Below, piece by piece: positions 1-64,000 of a stretch of DNA of 64,000 nucleotides. The stretch is from NCBI GenBank assembly GCA_035389045.1, contig DAOORA010000012.1:1-64000 (forward strand), given 5' to 3'. Below the pieces are notes generated by a model. The model saw nothing but the letters and a program-made list of their open reading frames with translations. It did not search any database and had not been told where the DNA came from. Made by a program: the position numbers and the translations under genes. The DNA comes from Bacteroidales bacterium (GTDB lineage Bacteria > Bacteroidota > Bacteroidia > Bacteroidales > CAIWKO01). Positions within the stretch are counted from its first letter, which is position 1; every line of letters starts with the position of its first letter.

Positions 1-96
1 ATGATCCTATGCTATAAAATCGCTGACAGGGGCAGGCGGGGAAGAAAATGGAGTTTTCGTTCAGACACTACTTACTGTTTGGCAATTATCGAAATC

Positions 97-288
97 ATGA
101 ACAAACTAAGACAGATATTTTTAACGATTACTTTCCTGAACATCCCAGTTTTTATAAACGAAGCCCTTGCCCAGGTACCGCCTCCCCACCCAGGAGACGA
201 GAACTCAGTGCCTGTTGACGGGCTTGGTCTTCTGGCTGCGCTTGGCATTGCATATGGGATAAATAAACTCAGGAAAAAGAAAAAATGA
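97..288 (+). CDS. Small secreted protein with PID-CTERM-type sorting signal
   Basis: In-frame ATG at 97 gives a signal-peptide-like N-terminus, a Pro-rich linker (VPPPHPG), then VPVDGLGLLAALGIAYG and a basic tail (KLRKKKK), the PID-CTERM pattern. The 1-96 extension in the ORF track looks non-coding. Confidence 0.75.
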   Translation: MNKLRQIFLTITFLNIPVFINEALAQVPPPHPGDENSVPVDGLGLLAALGIAYGINKLRKKKK

Positions 289-979
289 TTTGCCGGCCAA
301 CAAGTATTAAAAGGAAAGATTCACGCTTTTTCAAAAAATTGAGCCAAACAATACAATATTTTTCGGATCGTTTTCGAAATTGCAAATGCAGCATTATCGA
401 ACATTATTTCTAATGAGTTTATAAATGTACTTTTGAACTTTTTAACAATGATTATTGTATAAGAAGTCCGCACAACGATTAATTCCAGGAGATAAAAACC
501 TGTCTGTGTGGTATTGCGGATAGCCAATGAAACGTATCTTGCCGGTTGTCAAGAAAACAATAATTAAACTTCGGTATCATAGCAGACGTTGCCAGGCAAT
601 ATTAAAACGACATGTGAGAAATCAATTTTCAGGACTCACCCTGTCCCAATAAAAATGCCGTCCCAAAGAAAAAATGTTCACCTGCTCGTTATATCAAATA
701 AAAACCTACTTTCCTTGATCCGTCAATTTGTACAAAGGTAAAGCTCATAAAAGTATAGCTGCCGCAAGCCAATTTAAATTCACAGTATCCAGGTGATCAT
801 TATGTTTTATATTCCATAAAAAATATTTAAATTATTATTAATACGTTTGGTTTTTATCAAAATATTTGTTACTTTTATAGTTATAATTACTGATATTCAA
901 CAAATAAGCAATATTATATAATATATGTTTATTAAAAATTATCATGAAATAATTTGTATCATTATTAAATAATGTCACC

Positions 980-3900
980 ATGAAAAAGATCATCTTACTT
1001 ATTGTTTCAATGCTGGGATTCACAGCATATATTAATGCACAACCGGCTGGTTTATGGGGTATGACATATTCAGGAGGAAACGGAGGGGGAGTAATTTTTA
1101 AAACGGATAATAACGGAAATAATCTGCAAGTGGTATACAGTTTTATCAAAAATTCCGGTTCATCCCCGTCATATATACGATTGTGCGAAGCCGCCAACGG
1201 AAAGTTTTACGGAATGACCAACTTGGGAGGGGCTTTCGATATCGGAGTACTTTTTGAATATGACCCGGCAACAAATACATATACGAAAAAAATTGATTTC
1301 TCTAGTAACTACAACGGCAGATACCCAAAAGGCTCACTGATACTGGCCTCGAATGGGAAACTATACGGAATGACCTGCCAGGGTGGAGCAAACTATGATG
1401 GTGTTATGTTTGAATATGATCCGGCCACGGATACCTATACGAAGAAGTTTGATTTTTTAAACACGTCGAAAGGGTGTTACCCTTTTGGCTCGCTGATGCA
1501 GGCCTCTAACGGAAAACTATACGGCATGACATACAGCGGAGGAAGCAGCGGTTTCGGAGTCATGTTTGAGTATGACCTTACCACTAATACCTATACCAAA
1601 AAACATGATTTTACGGGCAACTCCGATGGAAAGAATCCTTACGGCTCTCTTATGGAAGCCTCTAACGGAAAGTTGTACGGCTTGACTTACAAAGGAGGAA
1701 GCAGCGATTACGGAATAATCTTTGAATTTGACCCTGCAACCAGCGCTTATACCATAAAACATGACCTTGCTGTTTCCGGCCTCGTCAATGGAATTTATCC
1801 CTATGGTGAAATGATACAGGCATCCAATGGTATGTTATACGGCATGACCCAGCGGGGCGGGGCCGGCGACCTGGGCGTTATTTTTGAATACAACCCTGCC
1901 ACCAATACCTATACCAAAAAAACTGATTTCACAGGCACACTTAATGGCTCCTATCCTTATGGATCGCTCATGCAGGCTGCCGGCGGGATGTTATACGGAA
2001 TGACCAGCCAGGGGGGAACCAACGGATATGGTGTACTATTTGAATATGATCCGGCTACCGGTACCTGTACAAAAAAAATTGATTTTCTGGGTACTTCCAA
2101 TGGAAGATCACCTCTCGGTTCACTGATGCAGGTGACTAACGGTACAATTTACGGAATGACAACCCAGGGAGGCGCCAGCAACTGCGGCGTTTTGTTTGAA
2201 TACAATCCTGCAACAAACACCTGTACAAAAAAAATTGAACTTAATGTTTTTCTGGATGGAGCATATCCTTATGGTCCGTTAATGAGCGCCTCCAACGGGA
2301 TGTTATACGGAATGGCCTGTAGCGGAGGCATCAACAATGCCGGGGTTTTGTTTGAATATAACCCGGTCACCTCAACCTATACCAAAAAAATTGATTTCGC
2401 GGGAACATCTAACGGGAGATACCCTTATGGCAGGTTGGTTCAGGCAAACAACGGCATGCTCTACGGGATGACCAACCAGGGAGGAAGCAATGATTGGGGG
2501 GTGCTGTTTGAATATAATCCTGTCACCAATATATTGACAAAAAAACTGGATTTTACAGGGACTTCAAACGGAAAAAGACCTATGGGCTCCATGATGAAAG
2601 CTTCCAACGGAAAACTATATGGCACAACCACTTATGGCGGAACAAACGATTTCGGTGTGCTGTTCGAATACGATCCTTCGACCAATACCTTTACAAAAAA
2701 ACATGATTTCACGGATATCCCCGATGGACGAAGCCCATACGGCAGCGATGTGATGCAGGCATCCAACGGGGTGCTTTATGGAACGACTTATTTGGGAGGA
2801 AGCGGCTACGGAATTATTTTTGAATATGATCCGTTGAACAGCACCTATACAAAAAAAATGGATTTTTCTGCCGCCGCCGATGGAAGAAATCCCTATGGCA
2901 CCCTGGTGCAGACCTCCGGCGGTTTGTTATACGGGATGACATGCAACGGAGGTGCCAGCAATTACGGCGTACTGTTTGAATATAACCCGACAAACAATAG
3001 TTATATAAAAAAATTGGATTTTGTGAGTTCTAACGGAAGGAATCCGCATGGTTCACTTCTGCTTGCGTCCAACGGGAAATTATACGGTGGAACCTACCAG
3101 GGAGGAACCATTGACGCAGGTGTACTTTTCGAATACAATACCACGGCGAGTGTCTACACCAAAAAACATGATTTTGACGGAATAACAGGAAGATATCCAT
3201 CCTATGGAAATCTCATTGAGATCATAACCAATTACTGGACCGGCACCGTAAGCAACAACTGGGACACACCCGGCAACTGGTCGTTGGGCGTGGTTCCAGG
3301 AAGTACTCTTGATGCTGAAATCCCCGATGTTGCTCCCAACCCCATGCCGGTAGTTAATTCATCAGGCGCTGCCTGCTGCCGTAATATTACCATAGATGCC
3401 AACGCTTCGGTCACCATAAACAGCGGCAAAGACCTTACGGTATCCGGAAACTGGACCAACAATGGCGACAGCCTCACAGGCATCGGAACCGTTTGTTTTA
3501 CAAGTAGTTACACTCAGAAAATAAACGGCCTCACCGTCTTTGGAAATCTCATAATAAACAATTCAGGCGGAGTGACATTAGATAGTCCTGTACAGGTGAC
3601 CGGGGTGCTGACCCCCTCACTGGGAACCCTAAGCACCAATGGCAACCTCACACTGGTTTCAACCGCAGCGCAAACAGCATTGATAGCAGGTACCGGATAC
3701 GGGGCGGTGACAGGAGATGTCACCATGCAGCGCTATATGCCGGACAAACTCGGGTATCATTATTATTCCTCTCCGTTCAGCAATGCACCCGTCAGCGGGT
3801 TCACCGATGAGCTGGGAACCATAATTTCTGCATATCCTTATGTGGGATATGATACGACACATACAGTGACCCCGTTTCCAAATTTCTATGTATACGACGA

Positions 3901-8197: not shown

Positions 8198-9319
8198 TTA
8201 CTGATTCAGCATTACCGGCATCACCAGCATGAGAATATCCTCCCCTTCGTTTTTAATCACAGGGAAGAGAAGCGCCGCGCGGTTGGAAGCCGACATTTCG
8301 ATACAAATCTCTTCTGTGTCAAGGTTGTTGATCATTTCAAGAATAAACTTTGAATTGAAACCGATGTCAATATCATCGCCGGCATAGTTACAGCTCAGCC
8401 GTTCCTTTGCTTCGTTGGATAATTCCGCATCTTCAGCCGACAGTATCAGTTCCTGTCCGGTGATTGAAAAACGTATCTGGCGTGTAAGCTGGTTGGAAAA
8501 GATGGAAACACGTTTGATGGAGGTTAGGATCTGCTGACGGTTGATGGTAAGTTTTTTATTATTATTGGCCGGGATAACAGCTTCATAATTAGGATATTTA
8601 CCATCAATCAGCCGGCATATCATACGTATATTTTCAAATTCAAAGAGTGCGTTGGTATTGTTATATTCAATCTTCACAGGTACATCCAGCGAACTCAGGA
8701 TATTTTTGATCAGGTTAAGCGGTTTTTTAGGCAGAACAAATGAACCCGGTTCACTGGAGCCGGCGTCGGTACGCCGGTACCTGACCAGTTTATGTGCATC
8801 GGTAGCCACAAAGGTGATATCTTTGTCAGACAACTGGCAGAACACTCCCGTCATTACAATCCTCATTTCATCATTACCTGTGGCAAACAATGTTTTATTA
8901 AATGCATTCACTAACACCTGTGAATCCAGAGAGATGCTGGTGCCGTTATCCACCACTGGAGACTGAGGATAGACATCTCCGTTAAAGCCTGTCAGTTTAT
9001 ACTTTCCTTCTCCTGCAGAAATTTCTATCTGAAACGTTTCGTTATTAATGGTAAATGACATAGGGACATCAGGAAAAGTCTTAAGAATATCAATAAGATA
9101 ACGGGCAGGAACCGCAATAATACCATCATTTTCAGCCATAGTCACTGGAATAACAACCGTAATGGTAGTTTCAAGGTCAGAAGCCGTGACACTGAGTTTT
9201 TCATCAGTAAGATCGAAAAGAAAATTGTCGAGAATCGGAAGTGTGTTGCTGGAAGTAAGTACGCCGCTGATCGCCTGCAGGTTCTTTAATAGTACGGATG
9301 TTGATACGATAAATTTCAT
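8198..9319 (-). CDS. dnaN: DNA polymerase III beta clamp
   Basis: MKFIVS, LPILDNFL, ASDLE, VATDAHKL, GKYPNYEAVIP, IGFNSKF, LVMPV; start taken at ATG 9319. Confidence 0.97.
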   Translation of the reverse strand: MKFIVSTSVLLKNLQAISGVLTSSNTLPILDNFLFDLTDEKLSVTASDLETTITVVIPVTMAENDGIIAVPARYLIDILKTFPDVPMSFTINNETFQIEISAGEGKYKLTGFNGDVYPQSPVVDNGTSISLDSQVLVNAFNKTLFATGNDEMRIVMTGVFCQLSDKDITFVATDAHKLVRYRRTDAGSSEPGSFVLPKKPLNLIKNILSSLDVPVKIEYNNTNALFEFENIRMICRLIDGKYPNYEAVIPANNNKKLTINRQQILTSIKRVSIFSNQLTRQIRFSITGQELILSAEDAELSNEAKERLSCNYAGDDIDIGFNSKFILEMINNLDTEEICIEMSASNRAALLFPVIKNEGEDILMLVMPVMLNQ

Positions 9320-56623: not shown

Positions 56624-56805
56624 ATTTTAAAAAAAAAAACGAAAAAAAACTTTTTTTCTATTGTTTTTTTTTTAATATTTGTAGAGTTGTTCAGGAATTT
56701 TTTTAGAACCTCACATTTTATGTTAGTTCTTTATAAAAGAACAGATTGGAAAAATTATTGTAAAAATTTTATTGTAAAAATTTGTAGAAATTGAAGGAGA
56801 TAAGG

Positions 56806-58242
56806 ATGAAAAAAAACCATGTTGATGTTTGGAACAACTGTTTGGAAATTATCCGTGATAATATTCCATATCAGAGTTTCAAAACCTGGTTTGAGCCGAT
56901 ATTACCCATAAAACTCAATGAATCAGTACTTACTATACAGGTGCCCAGCCAGTTTTTCTTTGAGTGGCTCGAGGAACATTATATTGATTTATTGAAAAAG
57001 ACCATCACAAAAGAACTTGGTTCTGACGGACAATTAGAATATAGCATTGTGATGGAAAACAGTTATGGTAATTCATCGCCTGTGACAGTTAAAACGCCCG
57101 GCGTCAACAGGAAGTCTATCAAAAACCCTGTGGTTTCAATGCCTATTGACATCAACAACGGTAAATCAAAAGACATTCCCAACCCATTTATTATACCGGG
57201 TCTGAAAAAAATTCAGATACCCTCTCAATTGAACGAAAACTATTCTTTTGAAAATTTTATTGAAGGCGACTGCAACCGCCTGGCACGTTCTGCCGGATAC
57301 GCCGTAGCCAACAATCCCGGAAAAACCGCTTTCAATCCGTTGCTGCTGTACTGCAATTCGGGTTTAGGAAAAACGCACCTTTGCCATGCCATAGGCCTTC
57401 AGATAAAACAAAACTTTCCCGACAAAATCGTGCTGTACGTTCAATGCGAACAATTCATCACACAATATATTGATGCTGTAAGAACCGGCAATCAGAACGA
57501 TTTTATGCACTTCTATCAGATGATAGACGTGCTGATCATGGATGACATCGAGTTTCTGGCAGCCAAAGAAGCAACACAAAATGTTTTTTTCCACATCTTT
57601 AACCATCTGCATCAGCAGGGAAGCCAAATCGTGATCACTTCAGACAAAGCCCCCATAGATCTCAAAGGCATTGAACCACGACTGCTCTCCCGTTTTAAAT
57701 GGGGATTGGCCGCCGACCTGCAGGTTCCAGACCTGGAAACACGTATTGCCATCATTCAAAAAAAATTATACAACAACGGTATCGAAATGCCTAACGAAGT
57801 GGTGGAATACCTTGCCTACAGCATCACCACCAATGTCCGTGAACTGGAAGGCGCCCTGGTATCCCTCCTGGCACAATCATCGCTGAACAAAAAAGCTATC
57901 ACACTCGACCTCGCAAAACAGATCATTGATAAATTCATCCGTAATAATTCACGCGAAATATCCATCGACTATATCCAGAAAATCGTTTGTGATTATTTCG
58001 GGATAAACATCGAAATGCTCAACTCCAAGACACGCAAACGCGAAATTGTCCAGGCACGGCAACTCTCGATGTTTTTCGCAAAAAAACTCACCAAAGCATC
58101 GCTGGCATCCATAGGTATGCACTGTGGTAAAAAAGATCATGCCACCGTGCTCCATGCCTGCCGTACTGTCAATAACCTTATCGAAACCGATAAACAGTTT
58201 AAACTGTATGTTGACGACCTGGAGAAGAAGATAAAACTCTGA
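56806..58242 (+). CDS. dnaA: Chromosomal replication initiator DnaA
   Basis: F.TWF.P, Y.FENF, FNPL, SGLGKTHL, RL.SRF.WGL, NVRELEGAL, R.REIVQARQ, DHATV.HA; start at ATG 56806. Confidence 0.97.
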   Translation: MKKNHVDVWNNCLEIIRDNIPYQSFKTWFEPILPIKLNESVLTIQVPSQFFFEWLEEHYIDLLKKTITKELGSDGQLEYSIVMENSYGNSSPVTVKTPGVNRKSIKNPVVSMPIDINNGKSKDIPNPFIIPGLKKIQIPSQLNENYSFENFIEGDCNRLARSAGYAVANNPGKTAFNPLLLYCNSGLGKTHLCHAIGLQIKQNFPDKIVLYVQCEQFITQYIDAVRTGNQNDFMHFYQMIDVLIMDDIEFLAAKEATQNVFFHIFNHLHQQGSQIVITSDKAPIDLKGIEPRLLSRFKWGLAADLQVPDLETRIAIIQKKLYNNGIEMPNEVVEYLAYSITTNVRELEGALVSLLAQSSLNKKAITLDLAKQIIDKFIRNNSREISIDYIQKIVCDYFGINIEMLNSKTRKREIVQARQLSMFFAKKLTKASLASIGMHCGKKDHATVLHACRTVNNLIETDKQFKLYVDDLEKKIKL

Positions 58243-60344: not shown

Positions 60345-62159
60345 TTATTCATCCTGCACCGCTTTCCTGCTACGTTTGCGCATGGTTTCATCAAGGACTA
60401 TTTTTCGTAACCGTATGGACTTAGGCGTTACCTCTACATATTCATCATCCTTAATATACTCCATCGCTTCTTCAAGCGAAAACTTAACAGCAGGTATGAT
60501 CACGGCTTTATCATCCGATCCCGAAGCCCGTATATTGGTAAGCTTTTTTGTTTTTGTAAGGTTTACGACAATATCATCGTAGCGGGTATTCTCACCAACT
60601 ATCTGCCCTTCGTAAATAGGGTCGTTGGGTTCAACAAAAAAACGCCCTCGGTCCTGAAGTTTATCCAACGCATACGTAATAGCAACACCAGTCTCCCCCG
60701 ATATTAGTGAGCCATTCCGGCGGCTGGCAATCTCCCCTTTCCATGGTTCGAAAGCTTTGAAAGTATGGGCAATCACCGCTTCCCCTTCGGTGGCAGTGAG
60801 TATGGCATTGGTAAGCCCGATGATACCACGTGAGGGGATATCGAATCTCAACTCAATCCGGTCGTTACGGGTTTCGATATTGGCAATCTCTCCTTTGCGC
60901 CTGGTCACAATTTCAATCACCTTGCCTGAAAATGCTTCAGGAACATGGATGGTGAGCATTTCGACAGGTTCATGTTTGACACCCTTTATCTCTTTAATAA
61001 TCACCTGGGGCTGGCCCAGCTGAAACTCATAACCTTCGCGCCGCATGGTCTCCACCAGTATTGAAAGATGCAATATCCCACGGCCAAAAACAACAAGTTT
61101 GTCAGGCGAGTCGGTATCTTCCACGCGTAGTGCGAGATTGCGTTCTGTTTCGCGGAAAAGCCGGTCGCGCAAATGTCGCGATGTAACATATACGCCATCT
61201 TTGCCGAAAAACGGCGAGTTGTTCACGGTGAACAACATGCTCATAGTCGGTTCGTCAACACTGATCGGGGCCAGTCCTTCAGGATTTTCAAGGTCGGCAA
61301 TGGTATCCCCGATTTCAAAATTTTCGGGGCCAAGCACCGCACATATTTCCCCTGCTCCAACCTCATATTTTACTTTTTCTTTGCCTAAGCCCTCAAATAA
61401 ATACAGTTCTTTAATATAAGTCCTGGTGGTTGTTCCGTCATTTTTCACCAAAGAAAGCTGCATCCCGGCTTTGATGCCTCCACGTGAGATACGACCCACG
61501 GCAATACGTCCTACGTAGGAGGAATAATCCAGTGAGGTGATCTGCATCTGCAGTGTGCCGGGCAACTGTTTGGGTGACGGAATATGTCTGATGATAACAT
61601 CAAGCAGATAGCTGACATCATCCGCAGGCTTTTTCCAATCAGCCGACATCCAGCCCTGCTTGGAAGATCCATATACCGTTGGGAAATTCAACTGATCTTC
61701 ACTGGCATCTAAGTTGAACATCAGGTCGAAAACTTTTTCCTGCACTTCTTCGGGTGAACAGTTGGGTTTGTCCACCTTATTTATTACAACAACCGGCTTT
61801 AACCCGAGATCAAGGGCTTTCTGAAGCACAAAACGGGTTTGCGGCATCGGGCCTTCAAAAGCATCCACCAGCAACAACACTCCATCAGCCATATTCAGAA
61901 CCCGCTCAACCTCGCCACCGAAATCAGAGTGTCCGGGAGTATCAATGATATTTATTTTTACACCTTTATACCGGACGGAAACATTTTTGGACAATATCGT
62001 AATCCCCCTTTCCCGCTCCAGATCGTTAGAATCAAGTATCAACTCTTTCTTTTCCTGATTCTCACGAAACAATTTAACCTGGTATAAAATACGGTCGACA
62101 AGCGTTGTTTTTCCGTGATCAACATGTGCTATTATAGCTATATTTCTGATTTCATGCAT
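60345..62159 (-). CDS. typA: Translational GTPase TypA/BipA
   Basis: [56 protein letters not shown]. Start at ATG 62159, with a TACCTTTG box at 62198-62205. Confidence 0.97.
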
Positions 62160-62289
62160 CTTACATAGTGAATTAACCGTTTTTTTAAAAGAATTTGCAA
62201 AGGTAGTCTTTATATTCCACAAACAATGTCCTCCGTGAAACATTTGATAGTATATTTGCATTACAAAATATTTATTTATTGACGATAAA

Positions 62290-63147
62290 ATGGCGATGTT
62301 AAAATTATATGGTATTATCGTGTTCGTTTTGTATGCGACAGGAGCGGCATTAAAACCAGACAAAGAAAAAAAAGACGTTTTGGATATAAAGGTAATTGAA
62401 CACTCGCTGGCAAAAATCACTGACAGTATTTACGCAGGGAAGTACGAGGTATCCAATCGCTTATATCGGTTGTTTGAACAAGATCTCAGGGCAAACGGCA
62501 GAACAGATCTGCTAAAGATCACCATGGTGGATTCCTTAAACTGGCGCGATAAACTTGCCTACAATGAACCGTATGTTGATTACTATTATAGTCATCCGGC
62601 CTATAAGGATTATCCCGTTGTTAATGTTTCATATGAGGCTGCTGTGCTGTTCTGCGAATGGCTCACTGAGAAATATAATGAGTTTCCGAAACGAAAATTC
62701 AAAAAAGTGGCGTTCCGGCTACCCTCAGCCAGGGAATGGACCTTTGCAGCCCGATGCAACAAATCATCGTCTCCGTATCCATGGGGATCGTACCTCATGA
62801 AAGACTGCAAATATATGTGCAACTTCAAACATTACGGTGATGAAAGAATTACATACAGAAAAGACCTGAAGACATACGAAATCGTGAAAAAACCCTCTGG
62901 CGGCAACTCTTTTGAATTATTTGACGCAACTGAAATTACAGCGCCTGTCCATTCGTATTTTCCCAATGATTTCGGCTTATACAATGTTTGCGGCAATGTA
63001 GCTGAAATGATCAATGAAAAAGGCAGGACAAGGGGCGGGAGTTATAAAAATACCGGATGGGATGTCAGGATAGATGCCGCAGATACTTTCGAAAAGCCGG
63101 CAACCGACGTGGGTTTCCGCTATTTTATGGAAATATTGGAAAAATAA
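62290..63147 (+). CDS. SUMF1/FGE-sulfatase domain protein
   Basis: YEVSN, YPVVNVS...A..FC.WL, FRLPS..EW, YPWG, PNDFGLYN..GNVAE, RGGS, GFR; TATATTTG box at 62251-62258. Confidence 0.88.
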   Translation: MAMLKLYGIIVFVLYATGAALKPDKEKKDVLDIKVIEHSLAKITDSIYAGKYEVSNRLYRLFEQDLRANGRTDLLKITMVDSLNWRDKLAYNEPYVDYYYSHPAYKDYPVVNVSYEAAVLFCEWLTEKYNEFPKRKFKKVAFRLPSAREWTFAARCNKSSSPYPWGSYLMKDCKYMCNFKHYGDERITYRKDLKTYEIVKKPSGGNSFELFDATEITAPVHSYFPNDFGLYNVCGNVAEMINEKGRTRGGSYKNTGWDVRIDAADTFEKPATDVGFRYFMEILEK

Positions 63148-63150
63148 CTC

Positions 63151-63513
63151 ATGAACCATACAGTTCGTGAACAAAAATTTGTGGTCGTTGCCGAAGCCCA
63201 TACCCATGAGCCGCTGGAAATATTCTTTGCCGATGGCCTGCCGGACCTTCATTCTGAAATTTTCGAAGCAGCCCGTAAAAACTGGGCTGCAAAAGGCGTT
63301 GATACGGTTTGTGCCGGGGGCGGCAGGTTTTGCATCATCGGTAAATTCCTGGTGTTTTACGACAAATCGCAGCAATACCAACGCTTTGATGGATGCGTTG
63401 TCGCCGCATTGAGCAAAAAACACCCTGCTTTCAAAGGAAAAGGATATAAGGTCATCTGTGATACCCGTTACACCGACCCGTGGAAACTCATTAAAGATTC
63501 CGGAATACTTTAA
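63151..63513 (+). CDS. Janus/Ocnus (PHPT1-like phosphohistidine phosphatase) candidate
   Basis: QKFVVV, LHSEIF, KGVDTVCAGGGRF, VFYDKSQQY, KKHP..YKV match the PHPT1 motif order by eye; 3 nt after the upstream stop. Confidence 0.6.
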   Translation: MNHTVREQKFVVVAEAHTHEPLEIFFADGLPDLHSEIFEAARKNWAAKGVDTVCAGGGRFCIIGKFLVFYDKSQQYQRFDGCVVAALSKKHPAFKGKGYKVICDTRYTDPWKLIKDSGIL

Positions 63514-64000
63514 GGGTTTTTATCAAAACTGCGCCGTTCGCCCAGCACATGATAATCTTTTTCCTGTATGGCCTTAAGGGGCAATTCGCGATTTTTGTAC
63601 ATGGACTTTAAATGATAGTTATGAACAGCAAGAGTGATATTTGTGATAATTCCAGACAATAACATTACAGCCATGATCACGGTAAACCATCTTTTGCGGA
63701 ACAGAGGTTCCCAGCAGTAAAAGGAATATATCATCACCAACGGAAAAAGCACATAAAAGGTATGCGATGAGGGGCCTTTCACGCTGAATAAAAAACTTAA
63801 ATACGTATAAATCATGGCAGAAAAAGCTAACCATCTGACCCATATAAAATCACTTTTCGGGTTTCTTCTGAAAAAAGCAATAATAAGGTATCCCGTTTGC
63901 AAAAATCCAATCAGTATAACAAATATAATAAAGGGCGCAGCGGGCCAGTAATCCATAAAAAAACGAATCTTTGACTCTCCATCGGTATCGATAAAACGAG
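63510..64000 (-). CDS. Membrane protein, C-terminal part (5' end outside window)
   Basis: The frame stays open from 63956 to the window edge; several hydrophobic helices. Confidence 0.7.
   Translation of the reverse strand, partial: RFIDTDGESKIRFFMDYWPAAPFIIFVILIGFLQTGYLIIAFFRRNPKSDFIWVRWLAFSAMIYTYLSFLFSVKGPSSHTFYVLFPLVMIYSFYCWEPLFRKRWFTVIMAVMLLSGIITNITLAVHNYHLKSMYKNRELPLKAIQEKDYHVLGERRSFDKNP

Follow-up and report, generated by a model that had tools for sequence, protein, structure and literature searches.

Histidine phosphorylation is used far more in bacteria than in animals. The phosphohistidine erasers described are few, namely PHPT1, LHPP, and PGAM5 in mammals (PMC6429109, PMC7948535, PMC11277029) and SixA in bacteria (PMC7948535, PMC6429109). 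Human PHPT1, whose fold is a six-stranded beta-sheet flanked by two alpha-helices (PMC4817053), is reported to use His53 as the general base that activates water, without a phospho-enzyme intermediate (PMC11277029). Its catalytic-site set comprises Lys21, His53, Ala54, Arg78, Ser94, and Ala96, and its substrate-binding residues are given as Glu51, Tyr52, His53, Tyr93, and Met95 (PMC4817053). Among bacterial phosphohistidine phosphatases, a target in vivo is described as having been proposed for SixA from Escherichia coli alone. SixA belongs to the unrelated histidine phosphatase superfamily and acts by way of a phospho-enzyme intermediate, formed when its catalytic His is itself phosphorylated (PMC7948535), and LHPP is placed in the HAD family (PMC11277029). 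Here, we describe a PHPT1-like gene in a 64,000-base stretch of DNA from an uncultured sludge bacterium of the order Bacteroidales (hereafter the window; bases 1-64000 of the 90,319-base contig DAOORA010000012.1, assembly GCA_035389045.1). The genome comprises 4.46 Mb in 135 contigs and is 96.3% complete. The encoded protein, of 120 amino acids (aa), is an undescribed bacterial member of the known Janus/Ocnus family.

A reading made from the DNA letters alone (the sequence-only reading) had proposed a 120-aa open reading frame (ORF) with a series of PHPT1-like motifs, and all of these were found in the translation in the order given: QKFVVV at residues 8-13, LHSEIFE at 33-39, KGVDTVCAGGGRF at 48-60, VFYDKSQQY at 68-76, KKHP at 89-92, and YKV at 99-101. 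Its statements that only eukaryotic members of the family have been characterized, and that SixA belongs to another superfamily, agree with PMC7948535 and PMC11277029. By eye, a signal peptide was not evident in the protein.

Family membership and predicted fold

When the window protein alone was compared with Pfam, the sole family matched was PF05005 (Janus/Ocnus; E 0.0011, 19.4 bits), with everything else at E 0.13 or worse, and no NCBIfam family was matched. An exhaustive phmmer search over 1.84 billion cluster representatives returned nine proteins at E ≤ 0.001, seven of them at E ≤ 1e-10, and with an 18-sequence profile 61 of 956 candidates reached E ≤ 0.01, giving a family of approximately 60 sequence clusters. 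The family alignment comprised 62 sequences, with four short or partial proteins (P0017, P0018, P0065, and P0066) excluded. PF05005 was matched by all nine close relatives (best E 1.5e-6) and by 58 of the 62 family members at E ≤ 0.01 (best E 5.1e-9), and no second family recurred. Profiles of 9, 18, and 62 sequences, searched against PDB, recovered human PHPT1 chains (2ai6, 2nmm, and 2hw4) as the sole matches below E 0.01, at E 0.0041, 0.0052, and 8.5e-5, respectively; the runner-up stood at E 0.41 in the two smaller-profile searches and at 0.24 with the full alignment. These data support membership of the Janus/Ocnus (PHPT1) family. Since 31 of the 61 proteins from the E ≤ 0.01 profile listing carry a precomputed PF05005 tag, a bacterial branch of PF05005 is already visible in databases though undescribed, and the window protein is a new, uncharacterized member of a known family. 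In a literature search, no publication on PHPT1-type proteins of bacteria came up, and the single paper listed with a mention of PF05005 was PMC10989767; the thin coverage of subscription journals leaves absence from print unproven.

The AlphaFold2 model, for which the alignment of nine sequences served as input (mean predicted local distance difference test score, pLDDT, 89.8; predicted template modeling score 0.82), contained strands at residues 8-15, 21-25, 52-63, 66-70, and 100-104 and helices at 34-46, 81-90, and 110-116. With Foldseek, the top five PDB matches were all PHPT1 (E 2.2e-4 to 2.2e-3; template modeling scores, TM, 0.58-0.69), followed by gelsolin domains at TM 0.37. Among 48,161 representative chains compared by VIA-align, 2nmm_A was the only one above Z 5 (Z 11.9, root-mean-square deviation 2.4 Å over 95 aligned residues, with 4..104 of the model matched to 16..121 of the chain), with the runner-up at Z 4.3. 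As modeled, the window protein has the PHPT1 fold. The family assignment made in the sequence-only reading was thus borne out by a unique match of both profile and predicted structure, nothing better being found in other families.

Like human PHPT1 (14 kDa; 2nmm, 2hw4, and 2ai6; TM 0.65-0.69), the window protein is a small alpha/beta protein, of 120 versus 125 aa. Unlike human PHPT1, it comes from a bacterial host, shares only 18-22% identity, almost lacks the N-terminal extension (model residue 4 falling on chain residue 16), and carries an extra C-terminal helix (110-116) outside the structural alignment. Given this identity of approximately 20%, the lack of His102, the different substrate-binding residues, the shorter N-terminus, and the extra C-terminal helix, the window protein is a Janus/Ocnus member but does not count as an animal PHPT1 orthologue. 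PF05005 also takes in Drosophila Janus-A, Janus-B, and Ocnus, insect proteins with sex-regulated expression for which a role as phosphatases is not clear (PMC4817053).

Should the window protein act on phosphohistidine, SixA would be its functional analogue in bacteria. However, the protein had no match to His_Phos_1 in Pfam at E ≤ 1. The string RHG, which we take to be the catalytic motif of the His_Phos_1 domain (SixA / histidine phosphatase superfamily), is absent from the 120-aa translation. The same genome also has a SixA-like ORF on contig 79, which scored 55 bits, under the cut-off of 74.5. LHPP and PGAM5, the latter a member of the histidine phosphatase superfamily, would be functional analogues among the mammalian phosphohistidine phosphatases; neither was matched by sequence or fold in the Pfam, Foldseek, or VIA-align results for the window protein.

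Active site and proposed activity

The sequence-only reading had claimed equivalents of four PHPT1 active-site residues. For three of them this was confirmed by HMMER alignments to 2ai6, 2nmm, and 2hw4, which placed H34, R59, and S73 on His53, Arg78, and Ser94 and also aligned the GGGR loop. For the fourth the claim stands only as probable, K9 being the likely counterpart of Lys21 because the structural alignment begins with an offset of +12, which would put K9 on residue 21. Across the 62 family sequences, K9, H34, G56, G57, G58, and S73 were each present in all 62. The lack of a His102 equivalent, also claimed in that reading, was evident from the same HMMER alignments, in which the window protein has Gly at position 81 (G81). 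As a separate observation, His91 is nearly invariant and might compensate for the lost His102.

At a probability of roughly 0.6, we propose that the window protein is a cytoplasmic, single-domain, PHPT1-type, metal-independent P-N hydrolase, the likeliest substrate being protein phosphohistidine. By transfer from human PHPT1, His34 would serve as the general base, activating a water molecule that attacks the phosphoryl group directly, and hydrolysis would proceed without a phospho-enzyme intermediate. Ser73 and the backbone amides around His34 and Ser73 would hold the phosphate, with Lys9 and Arg59 anchoring the substrate and stabilizing the transition state. Candidate substrates would include phosphohistidine on a sensor kinase, on nucleoside-diphosphate kinase, or on another enzyme with a phosphohistidine intermediate; PHPT1 is reported to dephosphorylate bacterial CheA in vitro (PMC11277029). 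Protein phosphohistidine is the most probable substrate, but given activity only at about even odds, because the residues that contact substrate in PHPT1 are changed and the gene has no link to a phosphohistidine system.

Several results weigh against this proposal. At 19.4 bits, the window protein alone scores below the PF05005 gathering score of 23, and phmmer with this single protein against PDB sequences gave no match at E ≤ 10. Position 59, equivalent to Arg78, is Arg in 54 of the 62 family sequences, and is replaced by Lys in five and by Met in three. No His occupies position 81 in any of the 62 (D 41, N 12, E 5, S 3, G 1), and mutagenesis marks His102 as important in human PHPT1 (PMC11277029). 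Glu51, Tyr52, Tyr93, and Met95 of PHPT1 are not kept, the corresponding residues of the window protein being D32, L33, K72, and Q74. Because these substrate-contact positions vary across the family (32, N27/D23/S9; 33, M32/L24; 72, K19/T16/R15; 74, Q23/E19/L9), the substrate may differ from that of PHPT1. No conserved phosphohistidine-system neighbor was found in the family loci compared, where neither a histidine kinase, a phosphotransfer protein, a phosphotransferase system component, nor a nucleoside-diphosphate kinase recurs beside PHPT1-like genes, and neither an HPr nor an Hpt domain was detected in the 96%-complete genome. For the Janus proteins of Drosophila, a role as phosphatases is not established (PMC4817053). 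Finally, the RNA contigs that cover the gene, described below, are unstranded, have a depth of 2-5, and may include DNA carry-over.

Gene neighborhood, distribution, and transcription

Five syntenic loci represent the genus (window/L002, L013, L014, L015, and L016), and all share the gene order BipA/TypA-like GTPase, FGE-like protein, PHPT1-like protein, and a convergent 433-aa membrane protein (Table 1). The BipA/TypA-like name was given by eye, and this ORF is fragmented in the short L015. In the window, the FGE-like ORF ends with TAA at 63145-63147, three bases (ctc) before the PHPT1-like ATG, and the spacing in the syntenic loci is 1-15 nucleotides (nt). L013 has, at the same position, an FGE-like orthologue 68% identical to that of the window; partial similarity of the window copy to GldK/GldJ was far under cut-offs. 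The convergent gene, kept in all five loci, encodes a multi-pass protein that matched no Pfam or NCBIfam family, and its stop overlaps that of the PHPT1-like gene by 4 nt. In the four longer loci (all but L015), there follows a 634-650-aa membrane protein with a sulfatase domain (PF00884, E 9e-38) and distant LtaS similarity, and L002, L014, and L016 also have a KAS-III-like enzyme. On the other side, the BipA/TypA-like ORF as listed (60345..62420, minus strand, 691 aa, GTG start) overlaps the FGE-like gene; since the L014 and L016 orthologues begin at an inner Met, the first residue of a conserved M-[HQ] stretch, its real start is probably internal, with the two genes diverging without overlap. 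An ORF of 483 aa named DnaA-like by eye (56791..58242, plus strand) lies 5 kb upstream, and the locus may therefore be near the replication origin.

Table 1. Coordinates of the PHPT1-like gene, its predicted active-site codons, and associated features (window positions unless a locus, L, is named)
Feature	Position	Strand	Basis or remark
PHPT1-like (Janus/Ocnus family) gene	63151..63513	+	120 aa, ATG start; ORF listing, PF05005, model, dN/dS
Lys9 codon	63175..63177	+	probable Lys21 equivalent; invariant 62/62
His34 codon	63250..63252	+	aligned to PHPT1 His53; invariant 62/62; predicted general base
Gly56-Gly57-Gly58-Arg59 codons (GGGR loop)	63316..63327	+	aligned to PHPT1 GGGR; Arg59 aligned to Arg78
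Ser73 codon	63367..63369	+	aligned to PHPT1 Ser94; invariant 62/62
His91 codon	63421..63423	+	H in 58/62; just past helix 81-90 of the model
FGE-sulfatase-domain gene	62290..63147	+	285 aa, N-terminal hydrophobic segment; PF03781 E 1.7e-22
Convergent 433-aa membrane-protein gene, 3' part	63510..64000, on to contig position 64811	-	L002 3511..4812
TATATTTG, weak -7 match	62251..62258	+	32 nt upstream of the FGE-like ATG
PHPT1-like copies, G662	L039 7001..7381, 8274..8654 (contig 20); L040 7013..7372 (contig 70)		
PHPT1-like copies, G511	L041 3918..4298, 1731..1949		
PBP-transpeptidase-domain protein	L020 5709..6809; L039 5093..6193; L041 1957..3357		PF00905 E 4.2e-33 (L020 copy)
Lipoprotein of about 220 aa	L039 6318..6989; L041 4312..4953; L048 2692..3369; L051 509..1180; L053 10..525		

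Co-transcription of the PHPT1-like gene with the FGE-like gene had been suggested in the sequence-only reading, and in the window's genus it is probable. The 3-nt gap, the adjacency of the two genes in all five syntenic loci, and contigs from two RNA libraries spanning their junction (X4 record 6, 63023-63365; X6 record 10, 63081-63231) make it plausible, within this genus only. Contigs from three activated-sludge metatranscriptome runs cover the PHPT1-like gene at an identity of at least 99% and show no differences where they lie on it, which only hints at expression and at a joint transcript. The stretch 61800-64000 was complete in one run, which may be the source sample, and partial in other activated-sludge and anaerobic-digester runs; the RNA contigs leave parts of the stretch uncovered, and such gaps are no evidence of absence. 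Upstream of the FGE-like gene, TATATTTG fits what we take to be the Bacteroidetes-type -7 promoter motif. This motif was rejected as a signal, its count in the window being at chance (71 found, 67.8 expected), and it had no plus-strand match from 62290 to 63151. Scans of the window for sigma-70 promoters and terminators were likewise at or below chance. A G+C-rich hairpin of 7 pairs (63530..63549) lies 17 nt past the PHPT1-like stop, inside the 3' end of the convergent gene; it has a terminator-like score on the minus strand only, and the count of such hairpins was also at chance.

Outside the genus, neighbors change with the clade. In L018 and L019, a PMT_2-like protein and a GT2 glycosyltransferase lie upstream and an SBP_bac_5 lipoprotein downstream, and in L017 the neighbor is a PTPS/QueD-like gene. 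A PBP-transpeptidase-like protein of 366-466 aa is encoded no more than two genes away from the PHPT1-like gene in three genomes of different families (L020, L039, and L041), and two of these three proteins are lipoproteins. The main clade has an uncharacterized lipoprotein of about 220 aa whose gene adjoins the PHPT1-like gene, on its 5' side in some loci and its 3' side in others, the seven loci amounting to about five distinct contexts. This lipoprotein matched no Pfam family, is unrelated to the window FGE-like protein (hhalign probability 0.2), and gave a model (pLDDT 72) with only generic beta-sandwich matches (Z ≤ 8.0, many ties); it was set aside as a functional lead. The pairing with the FGE-like gene is genus-specific and not family-wide, and the family has no fixed partner.

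These neighbors bear on the main rival to protein phosphohistidine as the substrate, in which the same fold and chemistry would serve a small-molecule or glycan-bound phosphoramidate, or phospholysine or phosphoarginine, tied to cell-envelope metabolism. This would fit the loss of the substrate-contact positions assigned to PHPT1 (PMC4817053), the reported activity of PHPT1 on phospholysine (PMC6429109, PMC11277029), and the envelope proteins that neighbor the gene in different clades, including the LtaS-like sulfatase-family membrane protein, the GT2 and PMT_2-like glycosyltransferases, and the PBP-transpeptidase-like and other lipoproteins. However, no neighbor family is common to all clades, no phosphoramidate biosynthesis gene was identified nearby, and the adjacent proteins are exported while the PHPT1-like protein has no signal peptide. 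We consider this alternative fairly unlikely.

The distribution of the gene was patchy. The named relatives are all hypothetical proteins from uncultured Bacteroidales or Bacteroidota metagenome-assembled genomes. A family-profile scan of the organism's own family found a copy in 10 of 23 species genomes (6/17, 2/3, 1/1, and 0/1 by genus, the window's own genome in the first genus being excluded from these four counts). In a first sample of 61 relatives, all 10 matches fell in this family, with none in 38 genomes of 38 other families. When 401 genomes were sampled evenly across the order, eight matches were obtained, of which six, in four families, were genuine; those in G508 (E 7.5e-5) and G532 (E 7.4e-4) were dropped as spurious local matches, the former inside an 880-aa protein that by eye combines a glycosidase and a beta-lactamase-like domain, the latter inside a large secreted protein. 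In a set of 401 genomes drawn evenly from the phylum, the sole positive was the genome that carries the window (0/400 others), and none of 14 control genomes passed the PF05005 cut-off. A maximum-likelihood tree of the 62 sequences fell into three main groups, with 13, 13, and 36 rows; an 11-row clade in the second of these includes the window protein. The PHPT1-like gene is an accessory gene with a patchy distribution.

Copy number and architecture also varied. G006, of the same genus as the window, has a copy at another locus that is 33% identical to the window protein. Three copies occur in G662, two of them 900 bases apart, and G511 has one copy and a fragment; the tandem pair flanks a gene for a 214-aa membrane protein, and the fragment is an additional, truncated copy. 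A search for longer or fused forms with the 62-sequence alignment found none at E ≤ 0.001 among 8000 scored candidates, which is weak evidence. In L053, a 297-aa ORF (539..1432) joins a PHPT1-like domain to approximately 175 residues; in L041, a close relative, these residues are encoded by an ORF of their own downstream. The two genes may be naturally fused in L053, or one of the assemblies may contain a frameshift.

Such a pattern would suit a laterally moving accessory gene in biological conflict, perhaps an antidote to a phosphoramidate-forming modification, or a phage-derived gene, and either would be compatible with P-N hydrolase chemistry. Its presence in 10/23 genomes of its own family, 6/401 of the order, and 0/400 others of the phylum, the two lineages only 33% identical at different loci of one genus, the tandem and multiple copies in G662 and G511, and the variable adjacent exported proteins all point in this direction. 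So do the ESM Atlas clusters nearest to P0001 and P0026 (scores 0.86-0.91, 64-367 members, PF05005 on 22-88% of members where a family was shown), which are labeled mostly Viruses/Uroviricota on 7-26 records each. A viral or phage origin was nevertheless not confirmed in the collections compared. None of the 62 family members matched PHROGs, tblastn with P0001 and P0025 against 50,697 GenBank phage records gave no match at E ≤ 1, and BFVD structures gave none at E ≤ 0.001 (best 0.17). Three scans of IMG/VR (queries A1, A4, and P0049), with patterns that reach only fairly close relatives, found no relative. PADLOC assigned no family to nine proteins (three PHPT1-like, six neighbors). The window copy, moreover, sits in a conserved housekeeping neighborhood with a G+C content (0.46) like that of its neighbors (0.33-0.50), and we judge a role in conflict or a phage derivation highly improbable.

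Slightly less probable again is a noncatalytic, Janus-like binding or regulatory protein that keeps only the fold. The loss of the His102 equivalent, and the absence of a demonstrated enzymatic role for Drosophila Janus/Ocnus (PMC4817053), speak for such a protein, but H34, K9, S73, and the GGG triplet are kept in every one of the 62 sequences, whose identity to the window protein is otherwise no more than 24-77%, a pattern expected of an active site.

Whichever activity it has, the PHPT1-like ORF is a real gene under purifying selection. Besides itself, a word-index search gave eight close relatives of 116-124 aa with 56-77% identity, and relatives at 53-77% identity agree with it in length and lack internal indels. 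The ratio of nonsynonymous to synonymous substitution rates (dN/dS) was 0.12-0.15 against the four syntenic orthologues, computed from 5/10 pairs, the remaining five being saturated at synonymous sites. A chance ORF has nothing specific in its favor beyond a short protein annotated merely as hypothetical, and is contradicted by the 62 homologs of conserved length, the dN/dS, the confident fold, and the contigs from RNA libraries, leaving its likelihood close to nil.

Implications for phosphohistidine phosphatases

If the window protein is the phosphohistidine phosphatase proposed here, a PHPT1-type enzyme would add a second bacterial eraser class, unrelated to SixA, acting on kinases or metabolic enzymes. 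The uncultured hosts and the narrow family set practical limits, and the small, divergent homolog (approximately 20% identity, no His102) would help to dissect which residues the PHPT1 mechanism needs. More tentatively, such proteins may form a SixA-independent class of bacterial PHPT1-type phosphohistidine phosphatases, carried by uncultured Bacteroidales as a patchy and sometimes multi-copy accessory gene, and the animal enzyme could then have its root in prokaryotes or mobile elements. If true, the finding would raise the question of where the animal enzyme originated.

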